64,000 bases of DNA from an uncultured virus (IMG/VR IMGVR_UViG_3300009873_000002) (lineage: Duplodnaviria > Heunggongvirae > Uroviricota > Caudoviricetes), in IMG/VR virus record IMGVR_UViG_3300009873_000002, positions 62,001 through 126,000 of that record; one strand, given 5' to 3'. Below, piece by piece: positions 1-45,466 of this stretch (within the stretch, counting starts at the first letter, position 1; each line of letters opens with the position of its first letter). The notes under the pieces are model-generated. The model ran no database searches and was not told the origin of the DNA. It saw nothing but the letters and a program-made list of their open reading frames with translations. The position numbers and the translations under genes are program-made.

Positions 1-993
1 GGTAGTAGTATCAAGCTTTTCTACCTTGATATTCTTACCTACAAGTTCTCTGAGAAATTGCTTGATTGCATACAGGATATTACGAATTACATTACTGAAA
101 CCGGTAGTAGGTACCTGTTTCATGATCTTATCTGTAGCATCCTTTTCTAAGGCAGATACAATCACCTCTTCTTTGAAGCGATCGGATGTATTATCAAGTT
201 CGGGATATAACTGACGGATCTTATCTATCAATTGTCGGCCTTCTTCTGTTGCTGAAACCTGATCATACAGGTTACTAAACAACTGATGATTCGTTTTGCT
301 GATAGCTTTAACTAAGGGATGAGAAAACTCATGTACCATAGTTTGTGGTGTAACTTTACCTTTTACAAAGTAGACTTGCCCGGCAAAGAAGAATGCCGCT
401 TCACCTGTATAAGGTGTAGTGGTTTTTGCTAATAGGTTATCCGCCATTTCAGGCGTTACGAAGTTGTAATCGACACCAAATCTCTGGGAGAGATTGTCCC
501 CGAGTCTGGTCAAAACTTCTTCCGAATATGCACTGTTATAATCAGCAACGGATTCACTCATGATTATGTTCATGTAATCCGGTGTCATTCGCGGACGAGA
601 ATCATACAAAAAACTTTCATAGCTCTGCAACCCAGGTTGCGGAGCTTCTTTTTTTTCCGGCTTGATGTTGTTCTCAGGCATCAATGTTTTTCCAAATGGT
701 TGAGATGCTACCCAACTCTTGAACTCGCGTTCTTGATATAAAGCAGGATCCACCATTTTGAGAAGATCCAAAGTGGTATCTTCACGACTTACCTCAGCAA
801 ATCCGATATGTTTAAAAAGCAAATATGGACCATTGTCTCCGTGTGTTTCCAGAAACAATTGGAATGCTGCTTCCATAGGTGAAGGATACTCACCATTGTT
901 ACGAGCCCATGCTCTCCAGGCTTCATTCTCTCCCAAAGTGGACTCAAGTAGTTTCCACTCCGGTAATGATTTATTAGGACAAGTTGCTGCCAT
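1..993 (-). CDS. Giant virion/ejected protein, N-terminal part (partial, runs off window edge); contains a zincin-like HExxH motif
   Basis: Not in the ORF track. ATG at 993-991, 1 nt after the RNAP stop. Reads MAATCPNKSLPEWKLLESTLGENEAWRAWARNNGEYP... with in-frame HEFSH at 333-319. Follows the virion RNAP, as in crAss-like giant-protein blocks. Confidence 0.8.
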   Translation of the reverse strand, partial: MAATCPNKSLPEWKLLESTLGENEAWRAWARNNGEYPSPMEAAFQLFLETHGDNGPYLLFKHIGFAEVSREDTTLDLLKMVDPALYQEREFKSWVASQPFGKTLMPENNIKPEKKEAPQPGLQSYESFLYDSRPRMTPDYMNIIMSESVADYNSAYSEEVLTRLGDNLSQRFGVDYNFVTPEMADNLLAKTTTPYTGEAAFFFAGQVYFVKGKVTPQTMVHEFSHPLVKAISKTNHQLFSNLYDQVSATEEGRQLIDKIRQLYPELDNTSDRFKEEVIVSALEKDATDKIMKQVPTTGFSNVIRNILYAIKQFLRELVGKNIKVEKLDTTT

Positions 994-25785: not shown

Positions 25786-28700
25786 CGCATTGATATAACA
25801 TTCTTATTGTGACTTAGTATCAACAACATCTTGGTGTTACCACTAACACGTCTACGTAATAAAACCATGTTCACAAAATGTCTGAACTTCTTGCGCTGGT
25901 GAGGCGGCTTATTGTAGTTCATATTTGCAGGGTTCAGATCACGTATATACCCGTTAGCTGCAGTAACCCATATATGACGCTGCGCTGCCAGATTAAATTC
26001 TCCACGATCATCAGTGATATCCCAGAACTGGTTAAAGCGGTATTTTTGCTCTTCCTTACTGTATAGGATATCAATCGATGTCGGATTGATAATCGGATAC
26101 TGCACTATCTGTGGCGCATTGTTCTTCGGCTTCAAATTTAAGCGTAATAATCCAGATACTTGCTCTGTGTTATAAACTACTGCTTCATCAAAGTTGAAAT
26201 CAAGGACGTGGAACTTATCAAAACAGTTGTTTTGACCGTACCGGAAACACTCAAGCATGTACTCAAGACTTCTTGTGATTTCAACAGCTTGAATGGTAGG
26301 ACGTACAAATTCTATCTCCCAAGGATAATCAACACCATAGAAGTTACAGTAGCTATCACATACATCATTATGTTCCCAGATACCTTCGTTAAGTATAGTG
26401 AAAATATGAGACTTGGATCCCAATGTTAAAGTAGGATGCCAGTCATGAAATGATAACCACATCTTTTCTTCGGTATCATAACTTAAGGTCCATGATGCAT
26501 CTTCAAAGAAACGCGGATCACCTAGCTCAACCTGCAGTAGCCCGTTTACCAAGAACTGATTACCTCCGATGTATGTAACAGTTTGACCCGGCACATTGCG
26601 AAGTTTGTAATCTTTCTTCATGAAGTAGGCTATACCATATTCGCTATCGTACACCGATTGGCACCCTATACCAATAACAGGGTTCTCGAGTAGTTCAAAA
26701 GTAGGGAAGTCCTCCAGGAGTTTGTAAGGTAAGTACTCGGCCAACCAATATCGCATACTCTGAAGAGAGATTTCTTCAACACCACCTTGGAGTCTGAAGA
26801 TCTTACCTTGATTCTGACTTATCCAGAATAAACCAGCTGGAGTATTCATCACAGCTAATCGATCTTGACAAGATCCATACTCATAAGGAGCATCTGCATT
26901 AAATATGTTCTGCATAGGTTGACTGAACAACCCTCCATCACCTATAGTAATCTTGGTACCAATATCTGTCTGCAGTGTATCAACACCCTGGAACATAACC
27001 GGGCTTTCATTCTGGAAGAATATGGCTGCACCATTTTTATTGATAGGTTTCACACAGACTACACGACTCTTGAAATCCTTGTAGTTGTTGGCCAAGAATA
27101 CGAACCAATTATCCTTACGGAGTTCTTGCTCCTGAGGTAACGAGTATATGATTCTTTCCGGGTAATACAGATAACAACTTGCAGCAACAAGTGGATCATA
27201 ATATCGAGGTTGCATATTACCCCAACTTATGAAGTTGTTGAACAACCTAGAAATACTCAAGCTGATATCATACTTGAAGAAGTTACCAGACTTCAGGATA
27301 TCAGGCTTAGCGTTGAATAAAGATTGTAGATCGGTATAACGGTAAGGATCATAATGACGCTCTGTAGTAGGCTCTCCCCAATCACGTAAATCAGTATTGA
27401 TCTCTGACTCTACAAAGAAGTCACGAACACCTGAACTAGATATGTACATGTGAGCTCTTTTCAGCATGAATAGGTTCAGAGCTGTAAGATCACGATCAAA
27501 TGCACGATTACTTGTAGGAAGCTCCCAGTTGGCAATATTCAAAGGAATGATGTTTGTAACAACACTCGCAAAGAATTCGTTGATATCGTAATTTGTAGTA
27601 TCCATCCAATATGATGGATGAGGTAACATCTTTCTCAACTCGTAGTTAAACTCATAACCATCCGGTTGATCGTATAACCAGTCATAGAAATAGAAGAACG
27701 TATTCTTCTCCGTATATCGTGATACATAGGTATCCCCGTTGAACAATGTATCAGAATTGGCAATAGGTGTCGGAGGACCTGGAATCTGATAGGTCTGCAA
27801 TTCTGCAGCAGTCATCAGGTATGGACATGTACTTACCGGTACTTGTTGGATGTTATCCAATTGACCATACTGGTTACGAATGCGCTGTTTCAACGCTGCG
27901 TAGTGACATGCCGAATTGGTATTGAACGGTCTTAAAGGTTCATCATAAGGATTAGGTAACCCCCATGGGTTATCACCTACGCGTTGACGAGTATTGTCTG
28001 CCCCGAGAGGGTCTGCGATCAGCGATCCGCCAGATAAACTCAGAGCTACGCAACGACCTCTGAACAAGTTGTTGATTCGGAAATTGGTTCCGAAGTCATG
28101 AATGTTCGGAGTTAGGTATATAGAGTCATCCAATAATCTGCGGTTATTATTCAGCTGTGTTGGGAAGATTGAACTGTAGAAACCATGTGACTGGTACTGT
28201 AAAGCAAATTGTCGATATGGCGCAAAAGCCTTAATCAAGCGTAGCATTGTATCGGCACCTTCTGACATGTAATAGCTAAATGTTGGTATAGCATTAAATA
28301 CCTTAACAATTGCAGGTACCGTATCATAAGCACCTTGTTCTTCATCATGTATAATACCATAACCCATAGTAGCAGGAAGTAATCCTACACCTGAATAAAC
28401 AGCATCAATAGGAGGTTGATAAGTCAATCCGGTATCTGCACCTAATGTAGCTACAGCTATCATTTGACCTCCAGCATCATACCATATACCATCCTGAATT
28501 GATATATTAGCATTACCCCCAGCAACTGCTAATTCGGCAGCTGGACCTAAACCAGTAAATGGAACCCCACCAGTAGTAGCCCCTGCAAAAATACCACCAA
28601 GATCAATCTTGCGCGGGTATAAGCGTTGTGTCCTACGCTGACCATTCAAGGCGGCAAGAGCACCCGCAATACCCGCAACAAGAGAGATAAAGAATGCAAG

Positions 28701-30716
28701 GTTAGTAGCGTGCTTGTGCTTTGGATGTTTATCCGGTTCTACAAATTGACCTTCTACAGTAGCTCTGATCTCACCATAGAGTTTAAGCTCTTTGGATGAT
28801 AAGAATGGATTTGTAAATTGTGTATCCGGAGAGTGAAAGGTAAAATGATCTCTGCGGAAACTGTTATAAGGGTTCAGATCTTGGATCACACCGCTCAGTG
28901 CTCCAGTAAATGTAGGAGTAGTTGAAAGGAATGGATCTGCATTAAGATCATTGTATGGGTAGTTAGGATATAAACCAGTACGAGGTGTAATACCACCTTC
29001 AATTTGGTATTCACCCATGTTGTTGATGATACCTTTAGCAATAACACTCTTGTTACCTTCACGACTTCCACGAAGGATCTCGTAACCGACAATACCCGGG
29101 ATAGCATTTCCGTTATTGTCACGAGGAGGTTTGATGTTCTCAAACTTAACACCCATGATTCTGATTCTCGAACCACCAGCTGTTACATGATTTGTAATAG
29201 GGTTTGTAGCTGTAGCAAAGGGTGCTACACCTATGAAGTTATCAGGGAATCTATGGTGACGAATAGCTTTACCACACAAGTCATAGTCAGGACTGATAGT
29301 ACCGCTCCATGGTTGTGCACTGGCATTCCATATATCAGGTTTGTTATCCGGATAGATTTCAGAAGACTCCCAATAACCCATGAGACCTTCTCCAACAACT
29401 ACACCACCATCTGATAACACTGTACCGGGTAATGCAGTTACTGTTGCTGTATTTCTTACACGCCAAGTAAAAGGTGTAATACCTTCACTGATCTCTATAG
29501 CAGCATCAGGGCCAGCCGCGATAGTCAGATCATCAGCTGTAGCAGCTCTTCCAGGAATGTGATATGATGCTGATTTATCTCCAGTATCGAAGATCCATCT
29601 TATGAAGAATGGATAAACCTCATCTCTCAAGTAACCGGTATTGGTACCACCTTTAGCGTAATAATCCGATGGGTATTCCACAGCTTGCCATTTGGCTGTA
29701 ATCTGATTAGCCAAAGGTTGATAATTGAAGTCAAAACGAGTCTGTGGACCTACACGAAGTAAGTGCTGATTTACCTCATAAATAGCATCCGAACTTTCAT
29801 AAGTAGGAGTACGCAGAGGGATGAATTCTATAGGTACTGAAGGTAGAGATTCTTTTATCTGGTCGAATGATAATTGCTGCTGACGAGTGCTATAGATCCC
29901 CATCCGTTTAGCAACTGTCTGCTGATTGATGGTTGATACAATCACCAACTCAAATTCATCAAAGTTATCAGTATCGATCTGCTCTACAAATACGTCCAAC
30001 GAACCGGCAACATTATCGTGATCAAACAAAGCCTGAACATTAGATGGCATAAAGTAATCGGTAACTCTGATACTTTTTATTGTGTATGCAATAAGGGCAT
30101 AATAGGAGCCATTACGTAAAGTACCACCTGAGGCTCCTTTGGCTACACGTAAACAAGGACGAGTCATCAATCGTGCAAGTCGTATAGCATCGCAATCTAG
30201 CTGTGTGGTGTCAGTACAGATATTACAACCATCAACTACCACACACGATTGAACCCACGGAATGTTATCCAGGTTCATAGTGCGATCTGGATTTCTACGC
30301 TTATCAGACCAATAAACTTGCCAAGTACAATCTTCTTTCTCACGGGTTACACCTGTGATCAAGTTTTCCCTGGAGAAGTTTAGGCACGGATCGTTTACCT
30401 TGGTTGTATAGGTACATGTACTTGCATCGAATATCCCAATCTCAGAATCTACATCATTTGTGGAGAATGCAACCCACTTATCATTGTACATGTACACCAT
30501 ACCAATGATTGTATACGGAGCACTTGCACAATGTGTATTTGATGATTCATTTCCGATACCTCCTAAGTTTCCACTACGAGAGTTATTGATAGCATTACGC
30601 GCATGAGTCCACACATTCTCGGTGTTCATGACAGGTTCAATGTCCTTAACCAACCCCTTGAGAAAGGTGTTAGTTACTACATCGCTTGTATTTTGCATTC
30701 CCTGTTGCTTAGCCAT
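25782..30716 (-). CDS. Tail muzzle / stabilisation protein (P22 gp10-like nozzle of crAss-like phages)
   Basis: 1644 aa, beta-rich. N-terminal NTFLKGLVKD...ARNAIN and C-terminal WTLSYD...WLSFHDWHP motifs. Follows the ring-protein genes. Confidence 0.75.
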   Translation of the reverse strand: MAKQQGMQNTSDVVTNTFLKGLVKDIEPVMNTENVWTHARNAINNSRSGNLGGIGNESSNTHCASAPYTIIGMVYMYNDKWVAFSTNDVDSEIGIFDASTCTYTTKVNDPCLNFSRENLITGVTREKEDCTWQVYWSDKRRNPDRTMNLDNIPWVQSCVVVDGCNICTDTTQLDCDAIRLARLMTRPCLRVAKGASGGTLRNGSYYALIAYTIKSIRVTDYFMPSNVQALFDHDNVAGSLDVFVEQIDTDNFDEFELVIVSTINQQTVAKRMGIYSTRQQQLSFDQIKESLPSVPIEFIPLRTPTYESSDAIYEVNQHLLRVGPQTRFDFNYQPLANQITAKWQAVEYPSDYYAKGGTNTGYLRDEVYPFFIRWIFDTGDKSASYHIPGRAATADDLTIAAGPDAAIEISEGITPFTWRVRNTATVTALPGTVLSDGGVVVGEGLMGYWESSEIYPDNKPDIWNASAQPWSGTISPDYDLCGKAIRHHRFPDNFIGVAPFATATNPITNHVTAGGSRIRIMGVKFENIKPPRDNNGNAIPGIVGYEILRGSREGNKSVIAKGIINNMGEYQIEGGITPRTGLYPNYPYNDLNADPFLSTTPTFTGALSGVIQDLNPYNSFRRDHFTFHSPDTQFTNPFLSSKELKLYGEIRATVEGQFVEPDKHPKHKHATNLAFFISLVAGIAGALAALNGQRRTQRLYPRKIDLGGIFAGATTGGVPFTGLGPAAELAVAGGNANISIQDGIWYDAGGQMIAVATLGADTGLTYQPPIDAVYSGVGLLPATMGYGIIHDEEQGAYDTVPAIVKVFNAIPTFSYYMSEGADTMLRLIKAFAPYRQFALQYQSHGFYSSIFPTQLNNNRRLLDDSIYLTPNIHDFGTNFRINNLFRGRCVALSLSGGSLIADPLGADNTRQRVGDNPWGLPNPYDEPLRPFNTNSACHYAALKQRIRNQYGQLDNIQQVPVSTCPYLMTAAELQTYQIPGPPTPIANSDTLFNGDTYVSRYTEKNTFFYFYDWLYDQPDGYEFNYELRKMLPHPSYWMDTTNYDINEFFASVVTNIIPLNIANWELPTSNRAFDRDLTALNLFMLKRAHMYISSSGVRDFFVESEINTDLRDWGEPTTERHYDPYRYTDLQSLFNAKPDILKSGNFFKYDISLSISRLFNNFISWGNMQPRYYDPLVAASCYLYYPERIIYSLPQEQELRKDNWFVFLANNYKDFKSRVVCVKPINKNGAAIFFQNESPVMFQGVDTLQTDIGTKITIGDGGLFSQPMQNIFNADAPYEYGSCQDRLAVMNTPAGLFWISQNQGKIFRLQGGVEEISLQSMRYWLAEYLPYKLLEDFPTFELLENPVIGIGCQSVYDSEYGIAYFMKKDYKLRNVPGQTVTYIGGNQFLVNGLLQVELGDPRFFEDASWTLSYDTEEKMWLSFHDWHPTLTLGSKSHIFTILNEGIWEHNDVCDSYCNFYGVDYPWEIEFVRPTIQAVEITRSLEYMLECFRYGQNNCFDKFHVLDFNFDEAVVYNTEQVSGLLRLNLKPKNNAPQIVQYPIINPTSIDILYSKEEQKYRFNQFWDITDDRGEFNLAAQRHIWVTAANGYIRDLNPANMNYNKPPHQRKKFRHFVNMVLLRRRVSGNTKMLLILSHNKNVISMR

Positions 30717-31720
30717 TATCTACGGAATAAAGTTTTTTGTACCCAATAAGGAGGATATGAACGGAACATATCGTAATATCGGGAATACTGCGCTTTTCTA
30801 TTGATCTCCCAAACTTTCTTCATCTCTGAGAAGTTCGGCATCAGAACTATGGATAATGCGTTATTTCGAGCAGCTCTAAGTTTACCTTGGAGGTATCCTA
30901 GTTTCTGCTGCATATCTTCACCGTTAAACCAAAGGTTTTCACAGATGCGCTCCTTCATCGCATATTCATAGTACTCATTGAGAATTTCATGATCAGGAAC
31001 TAGTAAGTTACCATCAGCATCTTCCAGTATACCTTCATAGCTGATATAAACCTTACCGGTTTTGAATGACGTATGTAACCATCCATCTTTAATCCAACCT
31101 TCATCTTTACAAATCCAGCTAATGTTGGGACAATCACAATCGATATCCGGTGAGTTGCGAAGTCTCAAAGGATACATCTCATTGTATACTCTGGTCTCAG
31201 TTTTGATCACCTGAACTAACTGAAATGTATCACCACATTTATTAAGTAGACATGTTGGTTGCGGAGGACATGGATTTTGTGCACATGGATCACAAGGATT
31301 GGTAACCGGTGCCGGACATTGATTACTGATATCCATTCCTTGAGGATATGGATAATATTGAGGAATCATTGGTGAGCACTGACAAGGGTTAGGACAACCG
31401 CATGTCTTTGTAGGACATGGTAATTCTTCAACCTGGGTTCCTTGCGGAAGAGCATTGGTCACTGTGAATGTACCACAGACCAAAGCATAGTTCAGCACAT
31501 GAAAATCATCAGGCAATTTGGCTTTGAAGTTTTCAATCTCGATCACCTTACCCTTGGTAGAGTGAATACGTAAACCCAGATCGCGGTTCACACGTCTGGC
31601 AACCTTGATCAAATCCTGAGGATCGATCATACCTTCAAGAGCGTAATTACGGAAGTCTATCTGAGCTTCCGATACGAGCTGATCAAAGGTTCGGTATTTG
31701 AGTTGATATCCGCTGCTCAT
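30716..31720 (-). CDS. Tail ring (tubular) protein with Cys/Pro-rich insertion
   Basis: LPDDF...L and GWLHTSFKTGKVYISYEG...DADGNLLVPD motifs typical of crAss ring proteins. Position just before the muzzle. Confidence 0.7.
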   Translation of the reverse strand: MSSGYQLKYRTFDQLVSEAQIDFRNYALEGMIDPQDLIKVARRVNRDLGLRIHSTKGKVIEIENFKAKLPDDFHVLNYALVCGTFTVTNALPQGTQVEELPCPTKTCGCPNPCQCSPMIPQYYPYPQGMDISNQCPAPVTNPCDPCAQNPCPPQPTCLLNKCGDTFQLVQVIKTETRVYNEMYPLRLRNSPDIDCDCPNISWICKDEGWIKDGWLHTSFKTGKVYISYEGILEDADGNLLVPDHEILNEYYEYAMKERICENLWFNGEDMQQKLGYLQGKLRAARNNALSIVLMPNFSEMKKVWEINRKAQYSRYYDMFRSYPPYWVQKTLFRR

Positions 31721-32388
31721 TATCTAAGTACGTTTTGTTTATCATCAGCGCCATCTGTTGGTAATTGTGCTGAGATTCCTAAATCGGCCTTGGCCATATT
31801 TTCAATCTCTGCAAAAAGATAATCAGGGATGGCGATATCCTGATCTTGTCTCATTACACATTGTAAAGCGGGATCGCATTGGAAAGCCGATGTATCATCA
31901 TCAAATAAACCTTCGATGAGGACGCTGTCCCAATCCAGATTAGGGAAATAGAGGTATCCATCAATGTACCAGAAATACTTCTTCTTGTTGTACTTAAAGT
32001 TCACTGATCGAAGCATGCGTTCGTAAGTAGCAGCATCTGTTTGGTATACCTCTTGAGATCTATCTACAGAAGACACCAATCTGAAGATAGGACCATGAAC
32101 TCCATCTGTAATTCCAGGAAGCTTCACCTTTGTTCTTTTGATGTAACAACCCGTAGGTATACTCAAACAACAGGCCTCTATGGGGCTTGTGTCTATTAAT
32201 TCGATACATGGAATGGTAGTGAACAAAGAACTGATACGCATCAGCTTTGCTCTGCTATCTTCTCTTCGAAGAAGTGCTCTTCCGTATTTCATGATGAGGC
32301 TGTATAAGAAACGGTCTGTGACAAACGCGTCATCTTTAACCGCCTTCATAATGTTCCTCAATCGTGATGTAGCTTCACCTATCTGCAT
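31720..32388 (-). CDS. Tail ring protein
   Basis: 222 aa. YFWYIDGYLYFPN...IEGLF motif. Position in the tail block. Confidence 0.6.
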   Translation of the reverse strand: MQIGEATSRLRNIMKAVKDDAFVTDRFLYSLIMKYGRALLRREDSRAKLMRISSLFTTIPCIELIDTSPIEACCLSIPTGCYIKRTKVKLPGITDGVHGPIFRLVSSVDRSQEVYQTDAATYERMLRSVNFKYNKKKYFWYIDGYLYFPNLDWDSVLIEGLFDDDTSAFQCDPALQCVMRQDQDIAIPDYLFAEIENMAKADLGISAQLPTDGADDKQNVLR

Positions 32389-33127: not shown

Positions 33128-34300
33128 TTATGCACCTTGACAGGTTCCGTTATTTACAATGGTCCATGTAACACCATCATTCAATGGTAGCACAGATAAT
33201 GATCCAGTAACTACACATACGGTAACACTTTCACCAGCATCTAAAGTATTAGATACTGCACCACCACCACACACCACAGCCCATACTTGTAAACCTCCAC
33301 CTTGCGCAGTATTGGTAACAGTTACGTTCTCGCATGTGCATAAGCAGTTTCCTGATTCTGCGATAGAATATTGGGCCGGTACAGGGTTAGCAGGTTGACC
33401 TGTTGAAGAACATGTAGCAAGAGTTTCTCCTACAGGGATATCTGGTCCTTGGGGACCTGCTCCATCACAATCAGGTAGTGTAAACTTAGGACAGTCTCTC
33501 AGTACAGAAACACCTACAGCTTGTACACCGGCTCCCGGAGGATCGATTGTAACTGCAGGGTTAGAACTGTAACCAGATCCCGCGTTTGTTACATTGAAAC
33601 TTATAATAGTACCGTAATCTGTAGTTACGGTGATTTGAGCTGAAGTAGTAGGTACGCCAACTACGCTGGTATCTGGTGTTAAGACCTCACCGGTTAAGTA
33701 ACCAGTTCCAGGAGCTGAAATAATCACAGTGTTGATTATACCGCCACTTATACCAATTGTAGCCTGAGCTCCAGAACCAGAACCTCCAAGGAGAGGTACT
33801 GCAGCATAAGCTCCATCAGTATATCCTGTTCCCGGGATGGTAAGAACCTCACTTAAGATAGCTCCTTGACCTACGTTAGCTGTAGCTGTTGCTCCTGCAC
33901 CGCCACCTCCAGAAAGTGATACAGCTGGAGGATTCATTGGGTCGTAACCACTACCTGGAGTGGTAACCACAATAGAATCTACCGGTGCGTTCTCACATGT
34001 AAAGATGTAACGCTTACAAGCAGGGTCTGGGGTAAATGTTTGCGAAAATGCAATTCGGCCGTTTAATGAGTTGATGTCCTCGCATGCTGCTTGAACATAT
34101 CCTTCAAAAACAACCTGGTCACAGGTTTCATTGTCAACAGTGACATTAATGTTTGCTGAACAAGCTGCACCTCCACCGGTACAGTTTACGATAGTACTAC
34201 AGTCGTAAGGTCCTGAAGAACCTATTCTCCAACATACACGGTGTGGACCTGCATATACTGAGTTGAAATTGACTGTGATTATTGCGGGTATTGCTGCCAT
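33128..34300 (-). CDS. Cys/Gly-rich structural fibre/spike protein
   Basis: 390 aa. Nested GxGY beta-repeat modules. N-terminal FN3-like segment. Cys-rich C-terminus. Confidence 0.6.
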   Translation of the reverse strand: MAAIPAIITVNFNSVYAGPHRVCWRIGSSGPYDCSTIVNCTGGGAACSANINVTVDNETCDQVVFEGYVQAACEDINSLNGRIAFSQTFTPDPACKRYIFTCENAPVDSIVVTTPGSGYDPMNPPAVSLSGGGGAGATATANVGQGAILSEVLTIPGTGYTDGAYAAVPLLGGSGSGAQATIGISGGIINTVIISAPGTGYLTGEVLTPDTSVVGVPTTSAQITVTTDYGTIISFNVTNAGSGYSSNPAVTIDPPGAGVQAVGVSVLRDCPKFTLPDCDGAGPQGPDIPVGETLATCSSTGQPANPVPAQYSIAESGNCLCTCENVTVTNTAQGGGLQVWAVVCGGGAVSNTLDAGESVTVCVVTGSLSVLPLNDGVTWTIVNNGTCQGA

Positions 34301-34306
34301 AGTCTT

Positions 34307-34834
34307 TTATGGATTGGTTTTTACTTTTATGGTTAATGAGTAACAGCCTCCCATAGCGCATTGAGCGTTTACGCGGATCATATACTCGGTATTTGGTAAG
34401 AGAGGTCCGATGGTATCAGTATTGACACCAACCGGTATAGCGGGGTTTAAATTCCAAGACATTGCTGACACTTCCTTGTACTCAACTTGGTAAGTTAGAG
34501 CTGTAGCTGACGGACTCCAAGATAGAACAATGCTGTTTGGACCAATTGCAGTAGGTATCAAATTCAATACACTCTGACATGTAGATGTAGGATTAGCACA
34601 GCCTGGGTAGATTGCATTGATCATGAGTTTCTGAAGAACCTCATCCATTCGATCTCCCGGTTGAATATCCAAGTCTACAATCTCAGGTCCTGGCCACACT
34701 ATACAGTGTGCACTCCAAATCTGAGCACATGGTTCAGGATTTGGGCACGGTGTTGGTGCGCAAATAGTTTGCGTAGATAATGGATTATCCGAACATCCAC
34801 AACCTGGGTCATTATGTCCACAGCCTTGGCTCAT
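34307..34834 (-). CDS. Structural protein with C-terminal fibronectin type III domain
   Basis: SVLNL...SIVLSW...YQVEYK...LLPNTEYMIRVNAQC matches the FN3 consensus. Cys-rich N-terminus. Confidence 0.75.
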   Translation of the reverse strand: MSQGCGHNDPGCGCSDNPLSTQTICAPTPCPNPEPCAQIWSAHCIVWPGPEIVDLDIQPGDRMDEVLQKLMINAIYPGCANPTSTCQSVLNLIPTAIGPNSIVLSWSPSATALTYQVEYKEVSAMSWNLNPAIPVGVNTDTIGPLLPNTEYMIRVNAQCAMGGCYSLTIKVKTNP

Positions 34835-34835
34835 A

Positions 34836-36347
34836 TTACGGTATGTTTAATTGTGATGTAACATTATAAGGTGGGTCACAAGGTGAGCCTAAAGTAGTAG
34901 TCAAGGTGTAAGGACAAGTCTTAGACTTACTTCCGGCTGTAATTGAAACTTCCACACGGTAAACAGTTCCCGATGTTAATCCGCCAAATGAACCAGAAAC
35001 AGTCACAGCAGCTGATACTACATGTGAATTGGAGCTGATCAATGTTGTACCTGTAGAATCAAACAACTTCACAGTGTAAGTCATAGAACCGGTTAAGTGG
35101 CTGAATGAATACCCAATTGAGTTATTTGTAGGAACTAGATTCACAGGGTCAGGACAGATTAGGGTATTAGCCAATACGTACTGTATTGTAGACTGACAAG
35201 TAACATTTGTTGTCGAGTTCTTCAGACAGATATTGGCACTGATTGTAAAGTCAAGAGCTGGATTCAATGCGCTTGCAGAGATATCTATATCAAGACCGTT
35301 CGGAGCATTCAGTATAGCAGTAAGCGATACGTTGGTAGTGAAATACTGACCATTGGTATCCATTACAGTAATCAAGGTTCCTCCCAGATTGCATTCAGCG
35401 AATCCTGAAGGAATATTACCGTTTACAAAGATCTTAAGGTTGTTGTTTACCAGGGTAGCGAATAGTGCTAATTCAACATCTTCACAACCATCACCACAGC
35501 AATTCGATTTGATATTCTTCACAGCAGCTCTGATATCACAAACCGTCAACCATAAATTTGTGAATGCATCAGCAAAACTCTTTGGTTGCTGTACCCATCC
35601 TTGAATGGATGCCATATTACCAAGGCCCGTTGCCAATTGCTTCTCCTGATCTAAACCTGCACATTGGGCAAGAATAGCAGCAAAGATCTCATTAGGCATA
35701 CCGGTAGCAGTACGAAGTTCACAGAACTGTTTCTCGAGTTCCTGGAGGAACTGATCCATCAGAACAGGATCTTTCGTACTGAAAATACACACAGGTTGCA
35801 GAGTGGGTAACTGATCTGATGTTACACTCTTGGTTTGGGCTTGTTGCTGTGCTTGTTCAAGATTTGTGATACGAGTATTGAACTGAGTCAATGTCTCGTT
35901 GATAATATTGATCTGATCCACTAAAGAGCAGATACGATTACCAATGGCAGTAACATAATCAAGTAACTGCATGGTAGTGACTGTATCTCCTTGCGGATTC
36001 AAGAAGTAGAAACATGGCGCAATGTTTACCACACAATCCGGACAACCTCCAGTAGGAGTTGGTGGAGGTGTAACATTACAGCATGTACAAATTCTCTCAA
36101 TTAACAACTGAATCAGTTGCTGAAAACTAGAAGGTGCAGGACATGCGTTAAGGCATGTAAGATCATAATTGGTGATCTTAAACATGTCCATAAGCTTGCA
36201 TAATTCAGTAGCCAAGTCGTAAACAACTTTAGTTACGGAATCACCCTTACATAGCTTGATACAAGGAAGATCAGGACCGCCCCATATCACACAATTTGAT
36301 GATACCGGATCGCATCCTGCTTGGTTAATATTTGTTGGTAGACCCAT
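34836..36347 (-). CDS. Cys-rich fibre protein with coiled coil and C-terminal FN3 domain
   Basis: 503 aa. Heptads (LVDQINIINETLTQFNTRITNLEQ). GLTSGTVYRVEV FN3 motif. N-terminal CVIWGGP module shared with the 175-aa neighbour (CIVWPGP). Confidence 0.65.
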   Translation of the reverse strand: MGLPTNINQAGCDPVSSNCVIWGGPDLPCIKLCKGDSVTKVVYDLATELCKLMDMFKITNYDLTCLNACPAPSSFQQLIQLLIERICTCCNVTPPPTPTGGCPDCVVNIAPCFYFLNPQGDTVTTMQLLDYVTAIGNRICSLVDQINIINETLTQFNTRITNLEQAQQQAQTKSVTSDQLPTLQPVCIFSTKDPVLMDQFLQELEKQFCELRTATGMPNEIFAAILAQCAGLDQEKQLATGLGNMASIQGWVQQPKSFADAFTNLWLTVCDIRAAVKNIKSNCCGDGCEDVELALFATLVNNNLKIFVNGNIPSGFAECNLGGTLITVMDTNGQYFTTNVSLTAILNAPNGLDIDISASALNPALDFTISANICLKNSTTNVTCQSTIQYVLANTLICPDPVNLVPTNNSIGYSFSHLTGSMTYTVKLFDSTGTTLISSNSHVVSAAVTVSGSFGGLTSGTVYRVEVSITAGSKSKTCPYTLTTTLGSPCDPPYNVTSQLNIP

Positions 36348-36360
36348 AGTTTACGTATTT

Positions 36361-36390
36361 AATATACAACTTTTCTGGCACTTGTCCAAG
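36361..36390 (-). promoter_or_regulatory. Putative late promoter CTTG-N19-GTATATT
   Basis: Same motif and spacing as at 32997, 41155 and 62069. Fills the 43-nt intergenic gap. Confidence 0.55.
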
Positions 36391-38382
36391 TTATCCGATA
36401 AATAACTGCGATGTAACATTCTCCGGTGGAGGACATGACGGCAGCGGAATGATCAGCTGGGATGTCACATTCTGTGGTGGAGGACATTGTATCGGGTTAA
36501 ATACTGATAAGGATGACGTTACGTTACATGGTGGACAACAGTCAGTTGACGGAATAACCGGTATACAAACTGTAGGATCAAACATTTCGGCAAGGTCAGC
36601 TTGTTCATTCTTAATCCATGCTTTGTCAACATCTTCTTCACAACATATACGGACTCCGTATCTTTTGCGAATGACATCATTGTACATAGCATCGCCAAAC
36701 TCACATTTGGCATTTAGGTAGTCTTGCGTATTACAAACCCGGGTTTCAAATCCAGGTTCAACAAAAGGTTTAGTGGGCTCTGGAACATAAGGTGGAGGAC
36801 ATTGCGTACAATCAGCAAAAGCTCTCACTATAGGTCCCGGGAGCATTATAGGGCAATCACAAATTACAGGATCTGTGCTCTCACGTACATACCAGCATCT
36901 TTCATCGCCTTCAATCTGAACAACCATTCCTACATAAGCAGATAAGTCGTCAGCAACTGAAATGGTTTCTTGGTTGTTGGCGCAATTGGCTAACCAGAAA
37001 CAGTGAGGTAAACAGGTTTGACAATCCTGGAAGGACTGGGTCATGTTTACAGCAACCGGTGCCTGACAAGTCAATGCCTGAGTTACATTCCAACAGACAC
37101 CATCGTAGCCGTCTATTTGGATAACAGAACCTACTTGAGCAGCAAGATCTGTATTTGTAATTATGTTCGGTAATGTACCAGCACAATCAATAAGTTCATA
37201 ACAAGTACCAAGACACTCTTGACAGTCAGCAAATGCTTGAACTAAAGTTACGGGTATAACTCCAGTACAGTTCTGAGCAACAGATACTGTCCAGCAACCT
37301 CCTCCTTGTAATTGAACAGTCTGACCTACATAAGCTGATAAGTCGGTATCTGTAATCAAGAAAGCAAAGCCGTTACACGCATCTAATCTGTAGCAAGGAT
37401 TAGCTTGAGACCATACTGCAGCAATGATGTCATCTCCGGGCATCGTATCTGTTACAGCACCGGTAAGACCAGCATTAGCTGTAACCATCATATTAGATTC
37501 CCTAGAGTAGAATCCATTAGTGAATGAATGGTAATGTGCTGCAAAAATCCTAGGTAATGCAACAGGTGGTAAAGTTGTTGGATTCTGTACAGTCCATGTG
37601 TTACCACCGTCTGTACTTATTAAGCGCTCGTCTCCTTGGCCTGTAGCCCACATCGTAGTAGCATCATACTTAGGTAACCAGGTCATGTGTAAACCTTCTC
37701 TATAAAGGAAGTCATGAACCATGGTGAAGGTGTTACCACCATCTAAACTCTTAAGTATAGCATTCTGACAACAAATAACAATTTCTTGCTGATCATTCGA
37801 CATGTAAATAGCAACAGGAGCAAGTACACTTATAACACCGTTTAGGTCGTTACCTCCATTCACAGCAGACCAAGTTACACCTCCATCATTTGTACGGAAA
37901 GCATAAGTCTCAAGAGATGACTGATAGAAACCTACCACACCTATTAATGGAGTGGTGAAGTGCACACAGTAAGCCCCTCCTCCCAGATTACCTCCAGTAG
38001 GTGTAGGCCATGATGCGGTTAAGTTAAAAGTTAATCCACCATCATTACTGATCACACATCGACCGTTGTCACCAACAGCTACAATGTTGTTGGAATCAAT
38101 TACCCATACTTCCCAGAATTGTTTGGCGCCAAGATATGTACCGGCCGGAGCTGCCCAAGTATTACCACCATCAACAGATACTCCTATCCCTCCGAATCCT
38201 TGACCTGATACACCTACTACAAACACCTTATCCGGGTTGTTAGGATCGGTCATCACATCATAAAGGGTCCCTGTATAACTAGGGAAAGACGATTGCAGGT
38301 CGACACTCGTCCACGGTGGTGTGAAATTGGTAAGGCGTCTAACCTTACCTCCTTGACCTACATAATACGTCTTAGCTGCCAT
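36391..38382 (-). CDS. Asp-box (BNR) beta-propeller structural protein with three Cys-rich repeats
   Basis: Five S/TxDGGxTW/F Asp-boxes (SVDGGNTW, SNDGGLTF, TNDGGVTW, SLDGGNTF, STDGGNTW). Three ~68-aa Cys repeats. Three terminal CxPPxNVTSxL motifs. Confidence 0.75.
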   Translation of the reverse strand: MAAKTYYVGQGGKVRRLTNFTPPWTSVDLQSSFPSYTGTLYDVMTDPNNPDKVFVVGVSGQGFGGIGVSVDGGNTWAAPAGTYLGAKQFWEVWVIDSNNIVAVGDNGRCVISNDGGLTFNLTASWPTPTGGNLGGGAYCVHFTTPLIGVVGFYQSSLETYAFRTNDGGVTWSAVNGGNDLNGVISVLAPVAIYMSNDQQEIVICCQNAILKSLDGGNTFTMVHDFLYREGLHMTWLPKYDATTMWATGQGDERLISTDGGNTWTVQNPTTLPPVALPRIFAAHYHSFTNGFYSRESNMMVTANAGLTGAVTDTMPGDDIIAAVWSQANPCYRLDACNGFAFLITDTDLSAYVGQTVQLQGGGCWTVSVAQNCTGVIPVTLVQAFADCQECLGTCYELIDCAGTLPNIITNTDLAAQVGSVIQIDGYDGVCWNVTQALTCQAPVAVNMTQSFQDCQTCLPHCFWLANCANNQETISVADDLSAYVGMVVQIEGDERCWYVRESTDPVICDCPIMLPGPIVRAFADCTQCPPPYVPEPTKPFVEPGFETRVCNTQDYLNAKCEFGDAMYNDVIRKRYGVRICCEEDVDKAWIKNEQADLAEMFDPTVCIPVIPSTDCCPPCNVTSSLSVFNPIQCPPPQNVTSQLIIPLPSCPPPENVTSQLFIG
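36800..37396 (-). repeat. Three tandem ~68-aa Cys-rich protein repeats
   Basis: CYRLDAC...TDLSAYVGQTVQL...CW...FADCQEC / CYELIDC...TDLAAQVGSVIQI...CW...FQDCQTC / CFWLANC...DDLSAYVGMVVQI...CW...FADCTQC. Confidence 0.8.
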
Positions 38383-38609: not shown

Positions 38610-39158
38610 TTATCGACATGTTGTGCAATTGAACTTGTTAAGTAGCTTCATTGCATAGTTGAAGATCTCCATACCCTTCTTTGGGTGATGACAGAATTCA
38701 ACCTGTGCTTTAGCTGCATATAACAATGAACGAATATATTGAAGTTCGCGTAATTTATCCTTGGTTGCGGCTGTAGGTTCACATCCTGCAAGATCAAGAG
38801 AACATAACGCTTTTTGGTATTTCATCAATGCTTTGGTAATACGTAGATGGTTGTATTCAACATACACTACATCTAACGGAGAGACTGCCCAACGAATAAC
38901 GTATATGCCATCCGGGAGGCCAGCAAATGTCTGACCGCAATCCTGAGTTTGAAGTTCAAGATCACAGGCTGTAAGATTTGTCGAAAACCCTGGTGCAAAC
39001 TGATCGAATACAACCGGTCCTAGAAATCCTGGAACGGTTACATAGAGGGTCGGACAAGTCACTGGAAGGTTGGGATCGTATACTGAAGTATCGACCACAC
39101 GTAGGATGCAATCATTCATCACATCCGGTATATCTAAACTGAGTTTGTGCTGTCCCAT
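38610..39158 (-). CDS. Conserved structural (tail/neck) protein
   Basis: 182 aa. LRVVDTSVYDP and LPDGIYVIRWAVSP motifs resemble a conserved crAss-like structural gene. Confidence 0.55.
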   Translation of the reverse strand: MGQHKLSLDIPDVMNDCILRVVDTSVYDPNLPVTCPTLYVTVPGFLGPVVFDQFAPGFSTNLTACDLELQTQDCGQTFAGLPDGIYVIRWAVSPLDVVYVEYNHLRITKALMKYQKALCSLDLAGCEPTAATKDKLRELQYIRSLLYAAKAQVEFCHHPKKGMEIFNYAMKLLNKFNCTTCR

Positions 39159-39161
39159 ATA

Positions 39162-39482
39162 TTAATCTTTTTGCCAGTCTTTATTTATCCAGGTTTTTAA
39201 TCTATGACAGTTTGCACATAACACTCTTAAGTTATCAAACTCATTGTTATTGTGGTTCCCATCTATGTGATCTATATCCAATTGACATTCGTGTATTGGT
39301 ATAAACCCGCAATTATCACACCTCTCCTTTTTGATACATCTCTTGTACACACGAGTTCTAAAGCTTCCCTTTTTACGCCCCTTTCTCTTATCTTTAGATA
39401 AAACCTTACACTTTCTGGAACAGAATCTCTTACCAGATCTGGTAAGTGTTATAGGGGTTTTGCAATGTTCACAGTTAGCCAT
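39162..39482 (-). CDS. HNH endonuclease with N-terminal zinc ribbon
   Basis: Likely ATG at 39482 (MANCEHC). KRFCSRKC. CDNCG...LDIDHIDGNHNNNEFDNLRVLCANCHRLKT. Confidence 0.88.
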   Translation of the reverse strand: MANCEHCKTPITLTRSGKRFCSRKCKVLSKDKRKGRKKGSFRTRVYKRCIKKERCDNCGFIPIHECQLDIDHIDGNHNNNEFDNLRVLCANCHRLKTWINKDWQKD

Positions 39483-39493
39483 AGTTACATAAA

Positions 39494-39536
39494 GCAAAAA
39501 GGGAGAGGAGAAATGTATCTCGCTCTCCCTTAGCTT
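39494..39536 (-). terminator. Rho-independent terminator
   Basis: AAGGGAGAG...CTCTCCCTT stem followed by a T-run on the minus strand, after the 521-aa gene. Confidence 0.65.
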
Positions 39537-39551: not shown

Positions 39552-41117
39552 TTACGGGAACTGAGGCACCATTGGGGTACAGTTGGTACATCCTACCACT
39601 GTCATGGTTACACAGTCAGCACAGTTGCTTAACCAAGTGTTCATGAAGGTTTCGAATGCAGCGTTTGTACCGGTAGTTACTACCTCCAGTAAGTACTGGT
39701 CGTTATCAAACGTTCCCGAAGGATTGTTGTAACGAGGCACGCTGTGAAGGATGAAGTAACGAGTGTAGAATGCAGCTCTGTTGATCGCAGCAAGGATATC
39801 GTTTCCTTGAGTAACCTCACGGATACGGATATCAGTAGCAAAGTAGTTCTGCAGGTAGCTTTCTGACAAGATCAAGTCACGAAGAACTGTCTCACCAAAA
39901 CCTTGCCCTTGACGTGGAGGACATTCCTCGATCACGCAAATTCCTTCGAATACGCAAGGATCTCCTGTGTAGTCTACTAAAGATGCAAGGATCTTAACCG
40001 GCTCCTTCTCGAAGAAGTCGCTTGGTTGGAATGAGCAATCTCCAAATACAGTACCTACGTAAGCTCCGTAAAGGATCAAACCGGCACAAGCATTTGCCAC
40101 GTGACCTGGAGATACATAAGCATCCCAAGTGTTTGCAGCGCCAGGAGTTCCTGGTGCGTAGTATACAGTTCCAGCTTCACTTACTACAACAGGCTGTACG
40201 AAAGCCTTCAAGTAAGGATCATTGATGATCTCATTAGCCCATGCAATCATTACAAGGGTTGAATCAACTGGAGACGGTGCGTTAGGATCCGGGCAGCATC
40301 CTGTTGGAGCAGGAAGTGTACGGTACGCATTGTGGTTCAAGAAACGCAATGTTGGCGATCCTTTCACATCGATACGGAGATAGTAAGTCTCATCGCACTG
40401 GAATTCGAAGCAGCAAGCTGCATTTGAACCAGCTACAGTATCAACTGTGATCTCAGCAGGTGTTCCTGGAGTTCCTACAATTGTAGGATCTGGAGCAAGA
40501 ACATCACCAACAGTATATCCGATACCACCATTTACAATCGTTACAATTGTGATGATACCACCTACGATAGTGATATTAGCTGTAGCACCAGAACCTGTTC
40601 CGCCAATAAGAGGAACGTTAGTGTATACACCATTGGTATATCCTACACCAGCTACTGAAAGTGTAACCGTAGCTACACCTGAAGAGGTATAAGGAGTGTT
40701 ACCAATGTGCACCACATGATTCTGTGGAGTACAAGGATCTACGCGATAGAACTCGCGGATGAATTTCGGGTTGATCAACTTCGATTTGTTCGACTCTTGA
40801 TAACCACCGTGGAATGGACCAATCTTATCGTTTTGGTATAACGCAGCGCTTGCCAGAATTAACGGGCAGCATGAGTTACTTGAAACGAAAGCAAGATCCA
40901 CGGATTGATACCCTGTTTTAGGGTTGAAGAATCCGAAACTTCCCACACCATAATTTTGTGCCGGGGTGGACGACACTTGCGCTAGGTTTGCCGATGGCAC
41001 ACCAGCAACAGTAAGGAAACCGTTGGTCAAGTTCGGGTTCGGATTTTGTCCGGCACCAACACCTGAAACCTGTGTTCCTACCATTGTCTTGCGAAACGCG
41101 TGATTAAAATAAGCCAT
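39552..41117 (-). CDS. Putative auxiliary capsid/structural protein with inserted GxGY module
   Basis: 521 aa. Has its own promoter and terminator. SKLINPKFI and YYLRIDVKGSP motifs plus head-block position fit the crAss auxiliary capsid protein. Confidence 0.55.
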   Translation of the reverse strand: MAYFNHAFRKTMVGTQVSGVGAGQNPNPNLTNGFLTVAGVPSANLAQVSSTPAQNYGVGSFGFFNPKTGYQSVDLAFVSSNSCCPLILASAALYQNDKIGPFHGGYQESNKSKLINPKFIREFYRVDPCTPQNHVVHIGNTPYTSSGVATVTLSVAGVGYTNGVYTNVPLIGGTGSGATANITIVGGIITIVTIVNGGIGYTVGDVLAPDPTIVGTPGTPAEITVDTVAGSNAACCFEFQCDETYYLRIDVKGSPTLRFLNHNAYRTLPAPTGCCPDPNAPSPVDSTLVMIAWANEIINDPYLKAFVQPVVVSEAGTVYYAPGTPGAANTWDAYVSPGHVANACAGLILYGAYVGTVFGDCSFQPSDFFEKEPVKILASLVDYTGDPCVFEGICVIEECPPRQGQGFGETVLRDLILSESYLQNYFATDIRIREVTQGNDILAAINRAAFYTRYFILHSVPRYNNPSGTFDNDQYLLEVVTTGTNAAFETFMNTWLSNCADCVTMTVVGCTNCTPMVPQFP

Positions 41118-41202: not shown

Positions 41203-41754
41203 TCAAGCACCAGCCATTTCGTTATCCAGCAATCTGATTGCGATCTTATCCTCACCGAATGCAGCAAGCTTATCCAGCCAAGTCTGCATCTTATCATGCT
41301 CTTCTACTTGCTCTTTCAAATACTTGAGAGCCAGCTCATACAGAATGTGATCTCCCTTTTTTAAAGCATCAGAAGCCAACTGTTTACATTGGTTGGACAC
41401 TTCAACTTCATGGTCAAAGGACATTCGAATGATCTCTGGTAAACCGGTGAAATTCTGATCAGGTGCATCAAGCTTGGGTGTAGTTGGTTGAACTCCCATA
41501 GCTAACAAATATTCACGAGCCCAATCAGCGTGTGCCATTTCCTCCTGGGAATACTTCTTCCATAAGGATGCGGCTCCTGTATAACCCATGTTGTTTAACC
41601 ACATTGACATAGCAAGGTAAATCCTTGAGGAGTATTCTTCCTGCTGAATTCTGTAGTTAAGGTGAGAAATAGCTGAGTCGTTTATCAATGGATTGTGAGT
41701 CCTTGGAATTGGGGCTGCTCCACCAGATCTTGCAAGTTTACGTGTCTGTTCCAT
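41203..41754 (-). CDS. ftnA: Ferritin (non-haem FtnA-like)
   Basis: QQEEYSSRIYLAMS, SQEEMAHA, DHEVEVS and KEQVEEH carry the ferroxidase-centre E/Y/E/H/E/Q/E pattern. Confidence 0.88.
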   Translation of the reverse strand: MEQTRKLARSGGAAPIPRTHNPLINDSAISHLNYRIQQEEYSSRIYLAMSMWLNNMGYTGAASLWKKYSQEEMAHADWAREYLLAMGVQPTTPKLDAPDQNFTGLPEIIRMSFDHEVEVSNQCKQLASDALKKGDHILYELALKYLKEQVEEHDKMQTWLDKLAAFGEDKIAIRLLDNEMAGA

Positions 41755-43849: not shown

Positions 43850-45466
43850 TTAGAACGATCCGCCCGTGATTGGGTTTCTCATTACAATTTTCAACACTTT
43901 GGTTGGGTCCTTTACCCAGATGGCTGGCATCGTCTGGCTCATGAACACACGGTATCCGTTGAATTGTCCAGAAGACTGGAATCCTTTCAAACGACCCATG
44001 TAATCCATTGTACCGTTTTGATACCACCACTTAAGTTGGTTATCCCACTTAAACTTCAACAAGAAGATGTTGTCGTTGGTGTTATCAGTTACATCGAAGA
44101 TGATGAAGCTGTACGAGCTCAAAGGATACCCATCGATGATTGGGTTCTCGATGTCGTTGGTATGTAAGTTGTCGAACGCAGGGTTCAGAACGAACTTCAC
44201 ATTTGCCAAGAACGGAATCACATAGCTTGTGTATGCGAACCCGAAGTTCAAGTCCATACCTTTACCAGTGATTGCTCCTATGTCAGCAGCCTGGATCACT
44301 AATCCAGAGTTAACTGCTTCCTGCTTGATGGCTTCATTCACCATACGCATACCACCCATACCGGTTTGAACGATCAGCTGACGCTTAGGATCCGGACCTT
44401 TGAACTCCACACGACCGTTGTAGAAGTTGAAGATCTCAGTACGGAACAGCTCTAAGCTGAAGTTACCTTTGTTGTAGATACGCTTGAAGGAGTTATCAAG
44501 CTGTTTCCAAAGACCCACAGAAAGACGCATGTCATCCGGGCCATCTTGCTTGATGCGACCACCATGTCCCCACATTAAGTAGGTCTCGATGTCAGTTGCA
44601 ATCTTCGCGAAGTGGGCTTGTTCCATCTTTGTCAGATAGGTAACACCCAATGTACCATTCTTCATGGCTTTCTTCACGTAATCTTTACCCATTTTGGTTA
44701 CCATGCTATCAAGCGAGCTGATGGATGGATCCAAGTTCTTGTCAAAGTTACGCCAGATCTCAGTTACAGGAACTGTACCATCAGCGTTCAAACCTCCGTC
44801 AGCTATCAATTTGGCACGAGAAGAACATGAGTAGTGAACGTGAGCTTCTGCACCTCCTACGAAGTTGTAGAACTCACGGAAACCTGAACCGGTGTGGATG
44901 TCAGAGAAACGCTCTCCGTACTCACCACGCGCAGAACCTTTGCGGAAGATCTTGGTTCCAGATGCCAGGTACTTGTTGTCAAGGAACTTGTAATTGTCAT
45001 TATTTACAAGTTGTACGGTGTAGATGAAACCATCACCAATTGGTAAGATATCATCCGCTGTCACGTACATCTCACAACCGTTGTACTTGTCATAAGTAAT
45101 GATGTCTCCATGTCCAAACTCACGCTTGTTCAGCTTGATTTTGAATGTGGTTCCATCGATACCCTTCTGCAAGTTGCTTGGTTCGATGTCTTCCATGATG
45201 TAAGGAAGATCTTGGGCGATAGGTGTTTCCCATTTGTATTCACCTCGAGCGTTATCCACCTCGATAACGTTCTTGCCACCAAAACTGGACATCTGATAGA
45301 GCGGCATCTCAACGCGCTGTGTCATGGCCCATAATTCTACAGGTCCAAGATCCATCGGTTCAGGGCTCTTCAGCATGTTCAGTAAGTGGTACGAGTCCAC
45401 GTGTGAGCTCGCATCATACTTGGTATCTCTTAGGAAAATACCATTGTTTAAAACTGGAGTTGCCAT
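43850..45466 (-). CDS. Major capsid protein
   Basis: 538 aa, after portal and acidic scaffold, followed by a strong terminator. GEYKW, ETYLMWG and GLWKQL segments fit the HK97-fold crAss MCP. Confidence 0.85.
   Translation of the reverse strand: MATPVLNNGIFLRDTKYDASSHVDSYHLLNMLKSPEPMDLGPVELWAMTQRVEMPLYQMSSFGGKNVIEVDNARGEYKWETPIAQDLPYIMEDIEPSNLQKGIDGTTFKIKLNKREFGHGDIITYDKYNGCEMYVTADDILPIGDGFIYTVQLVNNDNYKFLDNKYLASGTKIFRKGSARGEYGERFSDIHTGSGFREFYNFVGGAEAHVHYSCSSRAKLIADGGLNADGTVPVTEIWRNFDKNLDPSISSLDSMVTKMGKDYVKKAMKNGTLGVTYLTKMEQAHFAKIATDIETYLMWGHGGRIKQDGPDDMRLSVGLWKQLDNSFKRIYNKGNFSLELFRTEIFNFYNGRVEFKGPDPKRQLIVQTGMGGMRMVNEAIKQEAVNSGLVIQAADIGAITGKGMDLNFGFAYTSYVIPFLANVKFVLNPAFDNLHTNDIENPIIDGYPLSSYSFIIFDVTDNTNDNIFLLKFKWDNQLKWWYQNGTMDYMGRLKGFQSSGQFNGYRVFMSQTMPAIWVKDPTKVLKIVMRNPITGGSF

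Follow-up and report, generated by a model that had tools for sequence, protein, structure and literature searches.

We describe a putative split fibronectin type III (FN3) domain whose two parts are encoded by separate genes of an uncultured crAss-like phage, in a stretch of 64,000 nucleotides (positions 62,001 to 126,000 of the IMG/VR record IMGVR_UViG_3300009873_000002), below called the window. Two likely tail-fibre proteins of 663 and 503 amino acids (aa), here termed hub and stem, carry at their C-terminal ends short peptides similar to strand A, the first strand, of an FN3 domain. A third protein of 390 aa, the acceptor, starts with an FN3-like domain that has no strand A. Our best explanation, to which we assign a probability of roughly three in four, is that the terminal peptides (tags) are orphan FN3 first strands that dock into the acceptor and thereby complete a seven-stranded sandwich built from two chains, with a disulfide between the tag cysteine and Cys73 of the acceptor probably acting as a lock. 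The arrangement is real and conserved, with good comparative support; binding and geometry are proposed.

Terminal tags and an acceptor that begins at strand B

The strict tag pattern (C.PP.N[VLI], scanned over six frames of the window) yields exactly four matches, all of them C-terminal in either the hub or the stem. Three are found in the hub (36520-36540, residue 615; 36466-36486, residue 633; 36415-36435, residue 650), arranged in tandem with a spacing of 17-18 residues, and one in the stem (34860-34880, residue 490). The last tag of each carrier stops five residues past its NVTS core, at the stop codon. The original prediction, that the hub ends in three tags and the stem in one with nothing after them, is therefore correct. 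Residue shuffling (20,000 shuffles per protein) produces a single match in only 51 of the 20,000 shuffles for the hub and in 25 of the 20,000 for the stem, and two matches never arise; the six-frame count and the shuffles rule out a chance motif. When all open reading frames of the genome are scanned with a profile trained on 60 stem tags from relatives, five matches result: each of the four tags, plus strand A within the FN3-like domain of the stem, where it lies in cis.

Within the stem, the tag comes after the last (G) strand of this FN3-like domain and a short linker, exactly where strand A of a next repeat would begin; the chain then stops. The tag cysteine is invariant in 60 aligned tag-bearing stems, which were picked for a C-terminal C-x-P, and the column identity of the stem domain averages 40%. 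Relatives of the stem in viral contigs are recovered by alignment search (582) and not by single-sequence search (none). In the model of the hub C-terminus, two helices are followed by the three tags as extended coil, and a sheet formed by the tags in cis is not seen. Hub tag 1, which carries extra cysteines, may not be equivalent to the other tags and may differ from them in role or behaviour.

The AlphaFold2 model of the acceptor domain (119 sequences) places six strands in residues 3-89, with a mean predicted local distance difference test score (pLDDT) of 95 and no N-terminal helix. A seven-strand sandwich (A-B-E / C'-C-F-G) within one chain is not found for the acceptor alone, which is modelled with six strands only. 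FN3 structures align to the acceptor only from about their 14th-22nd residue, i.e., from strand B onward (2h45 with 18..95; 5kf4 with 389..466 of a domain titled P368-P466). The remaining strands B-C-C'-E-F-G have an FN3-type topology, and many FN3 chains align at Z 6.2-7.0 with a root-mean-square deviation (rmsd) of 2.5-3.5 over 70-80 residues. The wide structural search was filled by the acceptor domain. A Foldseek search with the full-length 390-aa model returned nothing at E 0.001, and an atlas search gave only weak unnamed viral clusters at 0.77 as well as generic immunoglobulin (Ig)-like folds.

A mis-called start of the 390-aa gene is ruled out by an in-frame stop two codons upstream; a stop lies at most 16 codons upstream in 83 of 84 related loci. 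Model, structural alignment and upstream stop thus agree with the earlier claim that the protein starts without strand A. The genes of the 175-aa protein and the acceptor share a frame, parted by one TAA stop and two codons (window 34301-34309); since the spacing of both genes differs in relatives, readthrough is unlikely. An initial search gave 167 acceptor relatives, an exhaustive profile search 250 clusters at 50% identity. In 148 of the 150 relatives listed (of 250 hits) the domain starts within the first seven residues, and a natural fusion with a tag directly before the acceptor in one chain was not found among these 150. Stand-alone forms of 88-103 aa occur among the relatives; hence, no later segment of the chain is needed. 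An incomplete sandwich that lacks one strand, a feature of donor-strand complementation, is seen in the predicted model, in the alignments and in the conserved truncation. In P0246 an ice-binding domain (PF11999) is fused ahead of the acceptor without a clear tag, and P0252, considered as a further fusion, is an unrelated repeat protein.

Cysteine covariation, co-occurrence and complex prediction

Covariation of cysteines was evaluated on 315 distinct acceptor domains, with five rows dropped beforehand (an unrelated repeat protein, a large insertion, two fragments and an aberrant start). Given as both / discordant / discordant / neither, the covarying pairs are 23/34 (285/0/0/30), 40/47 (283/3/3/26), 19/72 (32/0/3/280) and 60/95 (305/5/0/5). 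We infer three cis disulfides, C23-C34, C40-C47 and C60-C95. Cys73, at the end of strand F, has no covarying cis partner, in contrast to these residues; no other cysteine is present throughout all 315 domains. The cysteine count of the whole protein is odd in 163 of 198 acceptors, compared to 41 of 72, 28 of 63 and 34 of 53 members of three neighbouring families. The 175-aa protein, encoded between stem and acceptor, contains a complete FN3 domain whose strand-A Cys86 and strand-F Cys159 covary (53/0/4/13 in 70 rows; the four discordant rows look like alignment slips). It therefore provides an in-cis model for the lock: by sequence, the tag cysteine and Cys73 would constitute a pair of the Cys86/Cys159 type split across two chains.

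The original prediction had proposed co-occurrence across related phages as a check, and two sets of loci bear on it. The set fetched with the acceptor (66 non-redundant loci) has a stem tag in 61 loci (a partly circular count), hub tags in 39 and at least one tag in 63. The set collected independently of the acceptor derives from the best 80 of 586 loci retrieved by a conserved 182-aa protein of the same module and the best 80 of 582 retrieved by the stem N-terminus, of which 90 are left that are non-redundant and reach the next conserved gene. Here, a stem or hub tag is present in none of the 67 acceptor-less loci (loci in which the interval from the stem to the HU-like or ring gene gives no match to the acceptor profile at E 0.01), versus 18 of the 23 acceptor-bearing loci, and a 19th of these loci has the tag on a split stem fragment. 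Pooling results in 130 loci: at a tag score of at least 5, tags are found in 60 of 67 loci with and 0 of 63 without an acceptor; at a score of at least 0, in 65 of 67 and 1 of 63, respectively. The check thus comes out positive, with few of the contrasts being phylogenetically independent. Nine acceptor-less loci keep the stem FN3 and have no tag, and eight of these stems end at most nine residues after the FN3. L242 has neither acceptor nor tag; in its sister L117, an acceptor is present together with a tail that resembles a tag. The carrier of the tag shifts between loci: in L007 only the stem has a tag, in L163 and L175 only the hub does, L033 retains the tag although the FN3 is lost, and in L113 the tag is internal; there are one to four tags per locus.

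The relatives also differ in the ends of the carriers and in the parts attached to the acceptor. The hubs of L007 (6224-7924), L012, L014, L043, L053 and L059 end in a Cys/Ser/Gly/Thr-rich tail with many close-set cysteines instead of tags, and in L114 (2743-4833) an ice-binding-like domain (PF11999) takes the place of the tag at the stem C-terminus. Two tandem acceptor paralogs with different payloads are present in L052 (6531-9188), L113 (7131-9278) and L137; the stems of L052 and L113 are about 1000 aa long, and their tag is internal, with a long propeller-like extension behind it. The payload of the 390-aa protein is a Gly-rich insert matching virion and baseplate PHROGs, that of P0250 a CBM_4_9-like insert under the Pfam cut-off. 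P0156 and P0185 combine the acceptor with a segment resembling the N-terminal fibre motif of the stem and 175-aa proteins and a long fibre-like chain (by eye; no Pfam hit), an architecture that would make a true fibre branch. The Gly-rich insert is common to the 390-aa protein (33500-33990) and a 521-aa protein (39552-41117, auxiliary-capsid position by synteny); both match the same virion/baseplate PHROGs, and shorter relatives are devoid of the insert.

Multimer modelling, likewise proposed at the outset, was run with acceptor residues 1-95 and the stem FN3 plus tag. The complex scores 0.56 (runs 0.55, 0.56 and 0.60), whereas the best of three controls scores 0.00; the runs share at least 95% of their contacts, with a partner pLDDT of at least 82. 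In the calibration, 116 of 157 solved complexes attain the mark, as do 2 of 215 mismatches. The range up to 0.60 holds only 18 solved complexes plus both mismatches, and the pass is for this reason weak; it may reflect likeness to intact FN3 folds.

Proposed assembly and alternative explanations

In the assembly we propose, each tag would lie antiparallel to the long strand B of the acceptor (residues 3-14), completing the A-B-E sheet and pairing with strand B presumably via its alternating hydrophobic positions 7, 9 and 11. With its three cis disulfides, the incomplete domain would stay folded even if no chaperone assists. The bond between the tag cysteine and Cys73 would form once lysis has released the virion into an oxidising medium, in parallel to the disulfide-linked tail hubs of crAss001. 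Hub and stem would be located at the tail collar. There, they would present the 390-aa protein in several copies, up to three per hub chain and one per stem chain, whose payload domains would form side branches, probably for contact with the host surface; such a role would be plausible. Because the genome scan finds no tag in the acceptor itself, the acceptor would cap a site rather than polymerise. The genome contains one acceptor gene and no further paralogs; all tags would therefore bind copies of a single protein. The attachment of several adhesin subunits, as originally suggested, is accordingly retained in the sense of several copies of a putative adhesin and dropped in the sense of several different subunits; two paralogs occur in the three related loci named above.

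If true, the proposed docking would explain branched tail appendages of variable valency in widespread uncultured crAss-like phages, in which neither the number of tags nor the payload (a Gly-rich beta insert, a carbohydrate-binding-like insert, a further fibre, or none) is fixed, both being free to vary. To strand complementation as known from phage fibres, it would add the FN3 fold and a covalent lock, and a compact, reduction-reversible protein coupling pair would follow. With somewhat less confidence, we favour a wider interpretation: the pair may be a natural, chaperone-free and disulfide-locked split-FN3 tag-and-catcher (a C-terminal tag of 12-14 residues and a socket of 95 residues), by which a large uncultured crAss-like clade tunes the number and kind of payload domains branching off tail hubs and fibres. 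It may also exemplify a more general split-FN3 docking system, so far undescribed, that bacterial surface proteins would have as well.

Several results weigh against the docking of tags as strand A. The best Z of the acceptor domain is middling (at most 7.7, rmsd about 2.8) and non-FN3 Ig-like domains score alike, and no sequence match to FN3 is obtained in Pfam (0 families, E 0.1), in a PDB sequence search or with the neighbouring FN3 domains; the label FN3 is therefore one of topology, not of sequence. Folding as a complete sandwich alone had been named in advance as contrary evidence. AlphaFold2 does fold the domain confidently on its own, but with six strands only. The stem-tag counts are partly circular because the tag profile was trained on stem tags. 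Seven of the 67 acceptor loci have a tag score below 5, and two of them, L126 and L265, score below 0, though their tails are C-x-P-like by eye. The tree contains only six changes of acceptor presence, i.e., a low phylogenetic independence, and with three independent pairs on starred branches and none opposite, the sign test is not significant. Location on the virion is given by synteny only. Finally, the complex prediction puts out a score without an interface, in which docking in the strand-A groove and the geometry of the disulfide are not visible. For completion in trans with a bond between tag and strand-F cysteines, the core of the original prediction, the six-strand model, the structural alignment, the co-occurrence, the cysteine covariation and the weak complex pass are on the positive side, and the groove docking is the part not displayed.

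The confident fold of the isolated domain would also suit tags that bind another virion partner or each other, with a self-sufficient six-strand domain, either disulfide-stabilised or an open-edge homodimer, and a co-occurrence that reflects a shared cassette. The genes do adjoin, independent gains and losses are few, and the extra cysteines of hub tag 1 could pair in cis. However, tag and acceptor vanish together in the nine loci in which the stem FN3 and the intervening 175-aa protein remain, C73 has no cis partner, and the complex score is above all controls; we consider this arrangement unlikely. Tags and acceptor could also bind by edge beta-augmentation, or by a bare inter-chain disulfide elsewhere, rather than as strand A in FN3 register. 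The position of the tag directly after the stem G strand, where strand A of a next repeat is expected, argues for the FN3 register, as do the identity of the missing element, which is specifically strand A, and a cysteine pair that mirrors the in-cis strand-A/strand-F pair. Augmentation would be consistent with the lack of an interface in the complex prediction, with acceptor strands B and E that are longer than in a typical FN3, and with a hydrophobic spacing of the tag (7, 9, 11) somewhat unlike that of in-cis A strands; the accessible part of the report on A1002 describes fibre dimers docking on a rope by augmented sheets (PMC13730344). We judge augmentation to be slightly less probable still.

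Since the tags resemble the start of another FN3 repeat after the stem G strand, they might be functionless vestiges of repeats cut by stop codons. This is highly improbable: conservation largely refutes it, given a tag cysteine that is invariant in the 60 stems (selected, as stated, for C-x-P) next to a domain of 40% column identity, up to three repeats on the hub, survival after loss of the adjacent FN3 (L033), and absence of tags without an acceptor. Docking of the tags as strand A is our preferred reading.

Genome context and comparison with known systems

The genome is a single contig of 128,845 bases, and the window contains the virion module of a crAss-like phage, with all genes of the module on the minus strand (Table 1). 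Capsid, ring and muzzle proteins occur in the typical crassvirus order and match PF23898, PF24228, PF25702 and PF25731, all above the cut-offs; PHROGs add portal and terminase. The phage is Crassvirales-like, and the hosts of its clade are probably aquatic Bacteroidota. For the major capsid protein, the closest deposited phage is PP438436, recorded as a Leptolyngbya (cyanobacterial) phage, with 28.5% over 99% of the length, which is unusual for a crAss-like capsid. The acceptor has no match among 50,697 deposited phage records, and no cultured phages with the 182-aa protein were found.

The gene order agrees with that of crAss001 around the ring, HU-like and muzzle genes, and assigns the 182-aa gene to the position of tail hub A and the 663-aa gene to that of tail hub B. 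The genes of the 503-, 175- and 390-aa proteins are inserted ahead of the HU-like and ring genes. Profile comparisons of crAss001 gp38, gp39 and gp22 with the 182-aa, hub and stem proteins are not significant, nor is a tail-hub identity by profile, Pfam or fold. The helical anchor of the hub has the same gene position as crAss001 gp39 and a likeness by eye only (hhalign and Foldseek not significant). As homology to the crAss001 hubs is undetectable, the placement on the tail collar is deduced from synteny. The hub also contains about four tandem Cys-rich repeats of about 65 aa (window 36780-37400) with no Pfam match, and the number of repeats varies among relatives. Inside the structural module, a 183-aa gene (window 41203-41754), present in L001 too, encodes what we take by eye to be a ferritin-like protein, and genes for HNH-type endonucleases are scattered at 20593-21090 (Pfam/PHROGs) as well as 39162-39497 and 63175-63531 (both by eye).

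Table 1. Features of the tag and acceptor proteins and of neighbouring genes, in window coordinates.
Feature	Position	Strand	Evidence
Hub tag 1, residues 615-628, extra cysteines (CCPPC)	36499..36540	-	pattern match
Hub tag 2, residues 633-646	36445..36486	-	pattern and profile
Hub tag 3, residues 650-663, finishes at stop codon	36394..36435	-	pattern and profile
Stem tag, residues 490-503, putative orphan strand A, finishes at stop codon	34839..34880	-	pattern and profile
663-aa hub protein: BNR/Asp-box propeller-like N-terminus, Cys-rich repeats, two-helix anchor, three tags	36391..38382	-	
Two predicted helices of the hub, residues 552-600, tail-hub-B position by synteny	36583..36729	-	
503-aa stem protein, likely fibre stem: conserved Cys-rich N-terminal motif, helical middle, FN3-like domain, C-terminal tag	34836..36347	-	
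FN3-like domain of the stem, residues 398-486, own strand A; fold from sequence pattern, no Pfam hit	34890..35156	-	
175-aa protein, complete FN3 (PF00041, residues 91-162)	34307..34834	-	Pfam
390-aa acceptor protein: N-terminal strand-A-less FN3-like domain, Gly-rich beta insert (about residues 105-268), Cys-rich C-terminal beta domains	33128..34300	-	
Acceptor (socket) domain, residues 1-95, six predicted strands B, C, C', E, F, G	34016..34300	-	model and structural alignment
Cys73, end of strand F, predicted partner of tag cysteine	34082..34084	-	
182-aa conserved protein, tail-hub-A position by synteny, homology not significant	38610..39158	-	
Crassvirus major capsid protein	43850-45466	-	Pfam, above cut-off
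Two ring proteins	30716-32388	-	Pfam, above cut-off
Muzzle	25782-30716	-	Pfam, above cut-off

The likeness to pili and rope-and-bead fibres is one of proposed working rather than of demonstrated membership. Chaperone-usher pili (Pap, Fim) assemble by donor-strand exchange, in which the donor replaces the last strand, and TasA and the archaeal cannulae are grouped with donor-strand complementation systems. The Pam pili of bacteria of the candidate phyla radiation (CPR) use donor-strand complementation as well, according to the accessible part of their description (PMC13278184). As in pili, a peptide of one chain would here complete the incomplete Ig-like sandwich of another. Pilins of the chaperone-usher and Pam types carry donor and acceptor on the same subunit and polymerise into filaments, whereas the tags are found on the hub and stem proteins only, donors and acceptor being encoded by different genes. 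Moreover, the missing strand is the first one, and the acceptor, having no tag of its own, would act as a cap. Chaperone or usher genes were not seen among the 21 window proteins scanned, a scan not aimed at them in particular.

Complete FN3 domains (PF00041) share the topology of the remaining strands, and the tag resembles the in-cis A strands of neighbouring FN3 domains; the acceptor differs by a strand A missing from the chain, the lack of a Pfam match and the three putative cis disulfides. The tail hubs of phiCrAss001 dock fibres and are stabilised by disulfides, as stated in the available portion of the structural report (PMC10172136). Tail hubs A and B (THA/THB) and the fibre gp22 of that phage resemble the present module in gene order and, as far as the same portion goes, in the disulfide-stabilised docking of fibres to hubs that is predicted here (PMC10172136). 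The crAss001 THB has 114 aa and no tags, compared to the tagged hub of 663 aa.

Completion of incomplete sandwiches by a rope is already known in the phages GP4, Bas63 and A1002, and the principle is not new to phages. The accessible sections of the respective papers describe a collar rope in Bas63 that threads the grooves of the whisker dimers and, as the rope of GP4 does, fills in sandwiches that are otherwise incomplete (PMC12609058), and eleven dimers in A1002 that are docked on a rope by augmented sheets, with a nozzle-rope gp39 and gp40/gp41 (PMC13730344). A split-FN3 tag pair in phages or crassviruses was not found described in the literature searched, mainly non-subscription texts without supplements, and bead proteins of the GP4 gp80 or Bas63 gp5 type are not among the matches listed by fold or sequence searches with the acceptor. 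The rope-and-bead fibres (GP4 Fiber-1/rope, Bas63, A1002), within what those sections cover, share with the proposed system an extended segment of a scaffold, tandem docking sites whose number sets the number of subunits, separately encoded incomplete beta-sandwiches and connectors that often bear disulfides. The three hub tags, predicted to be extended, correspond to such a scaffold, and docking to them is what we propose. The beads of GP4, Bas63 and A1002 are, by the same sections, dimers of about 140-170 aa with an N-terminal helix (Bas63), and the rope is N-terminal or a separate protein. Here, in contrast, the acceptor is predicted to be an FN3-type domain whose split falls between strand A and strand B; it is modelled without an N-terminal helix and carries variable payloads, and a predicted disulfide would lock it to C-terminal donors on two different scaffold proteins.

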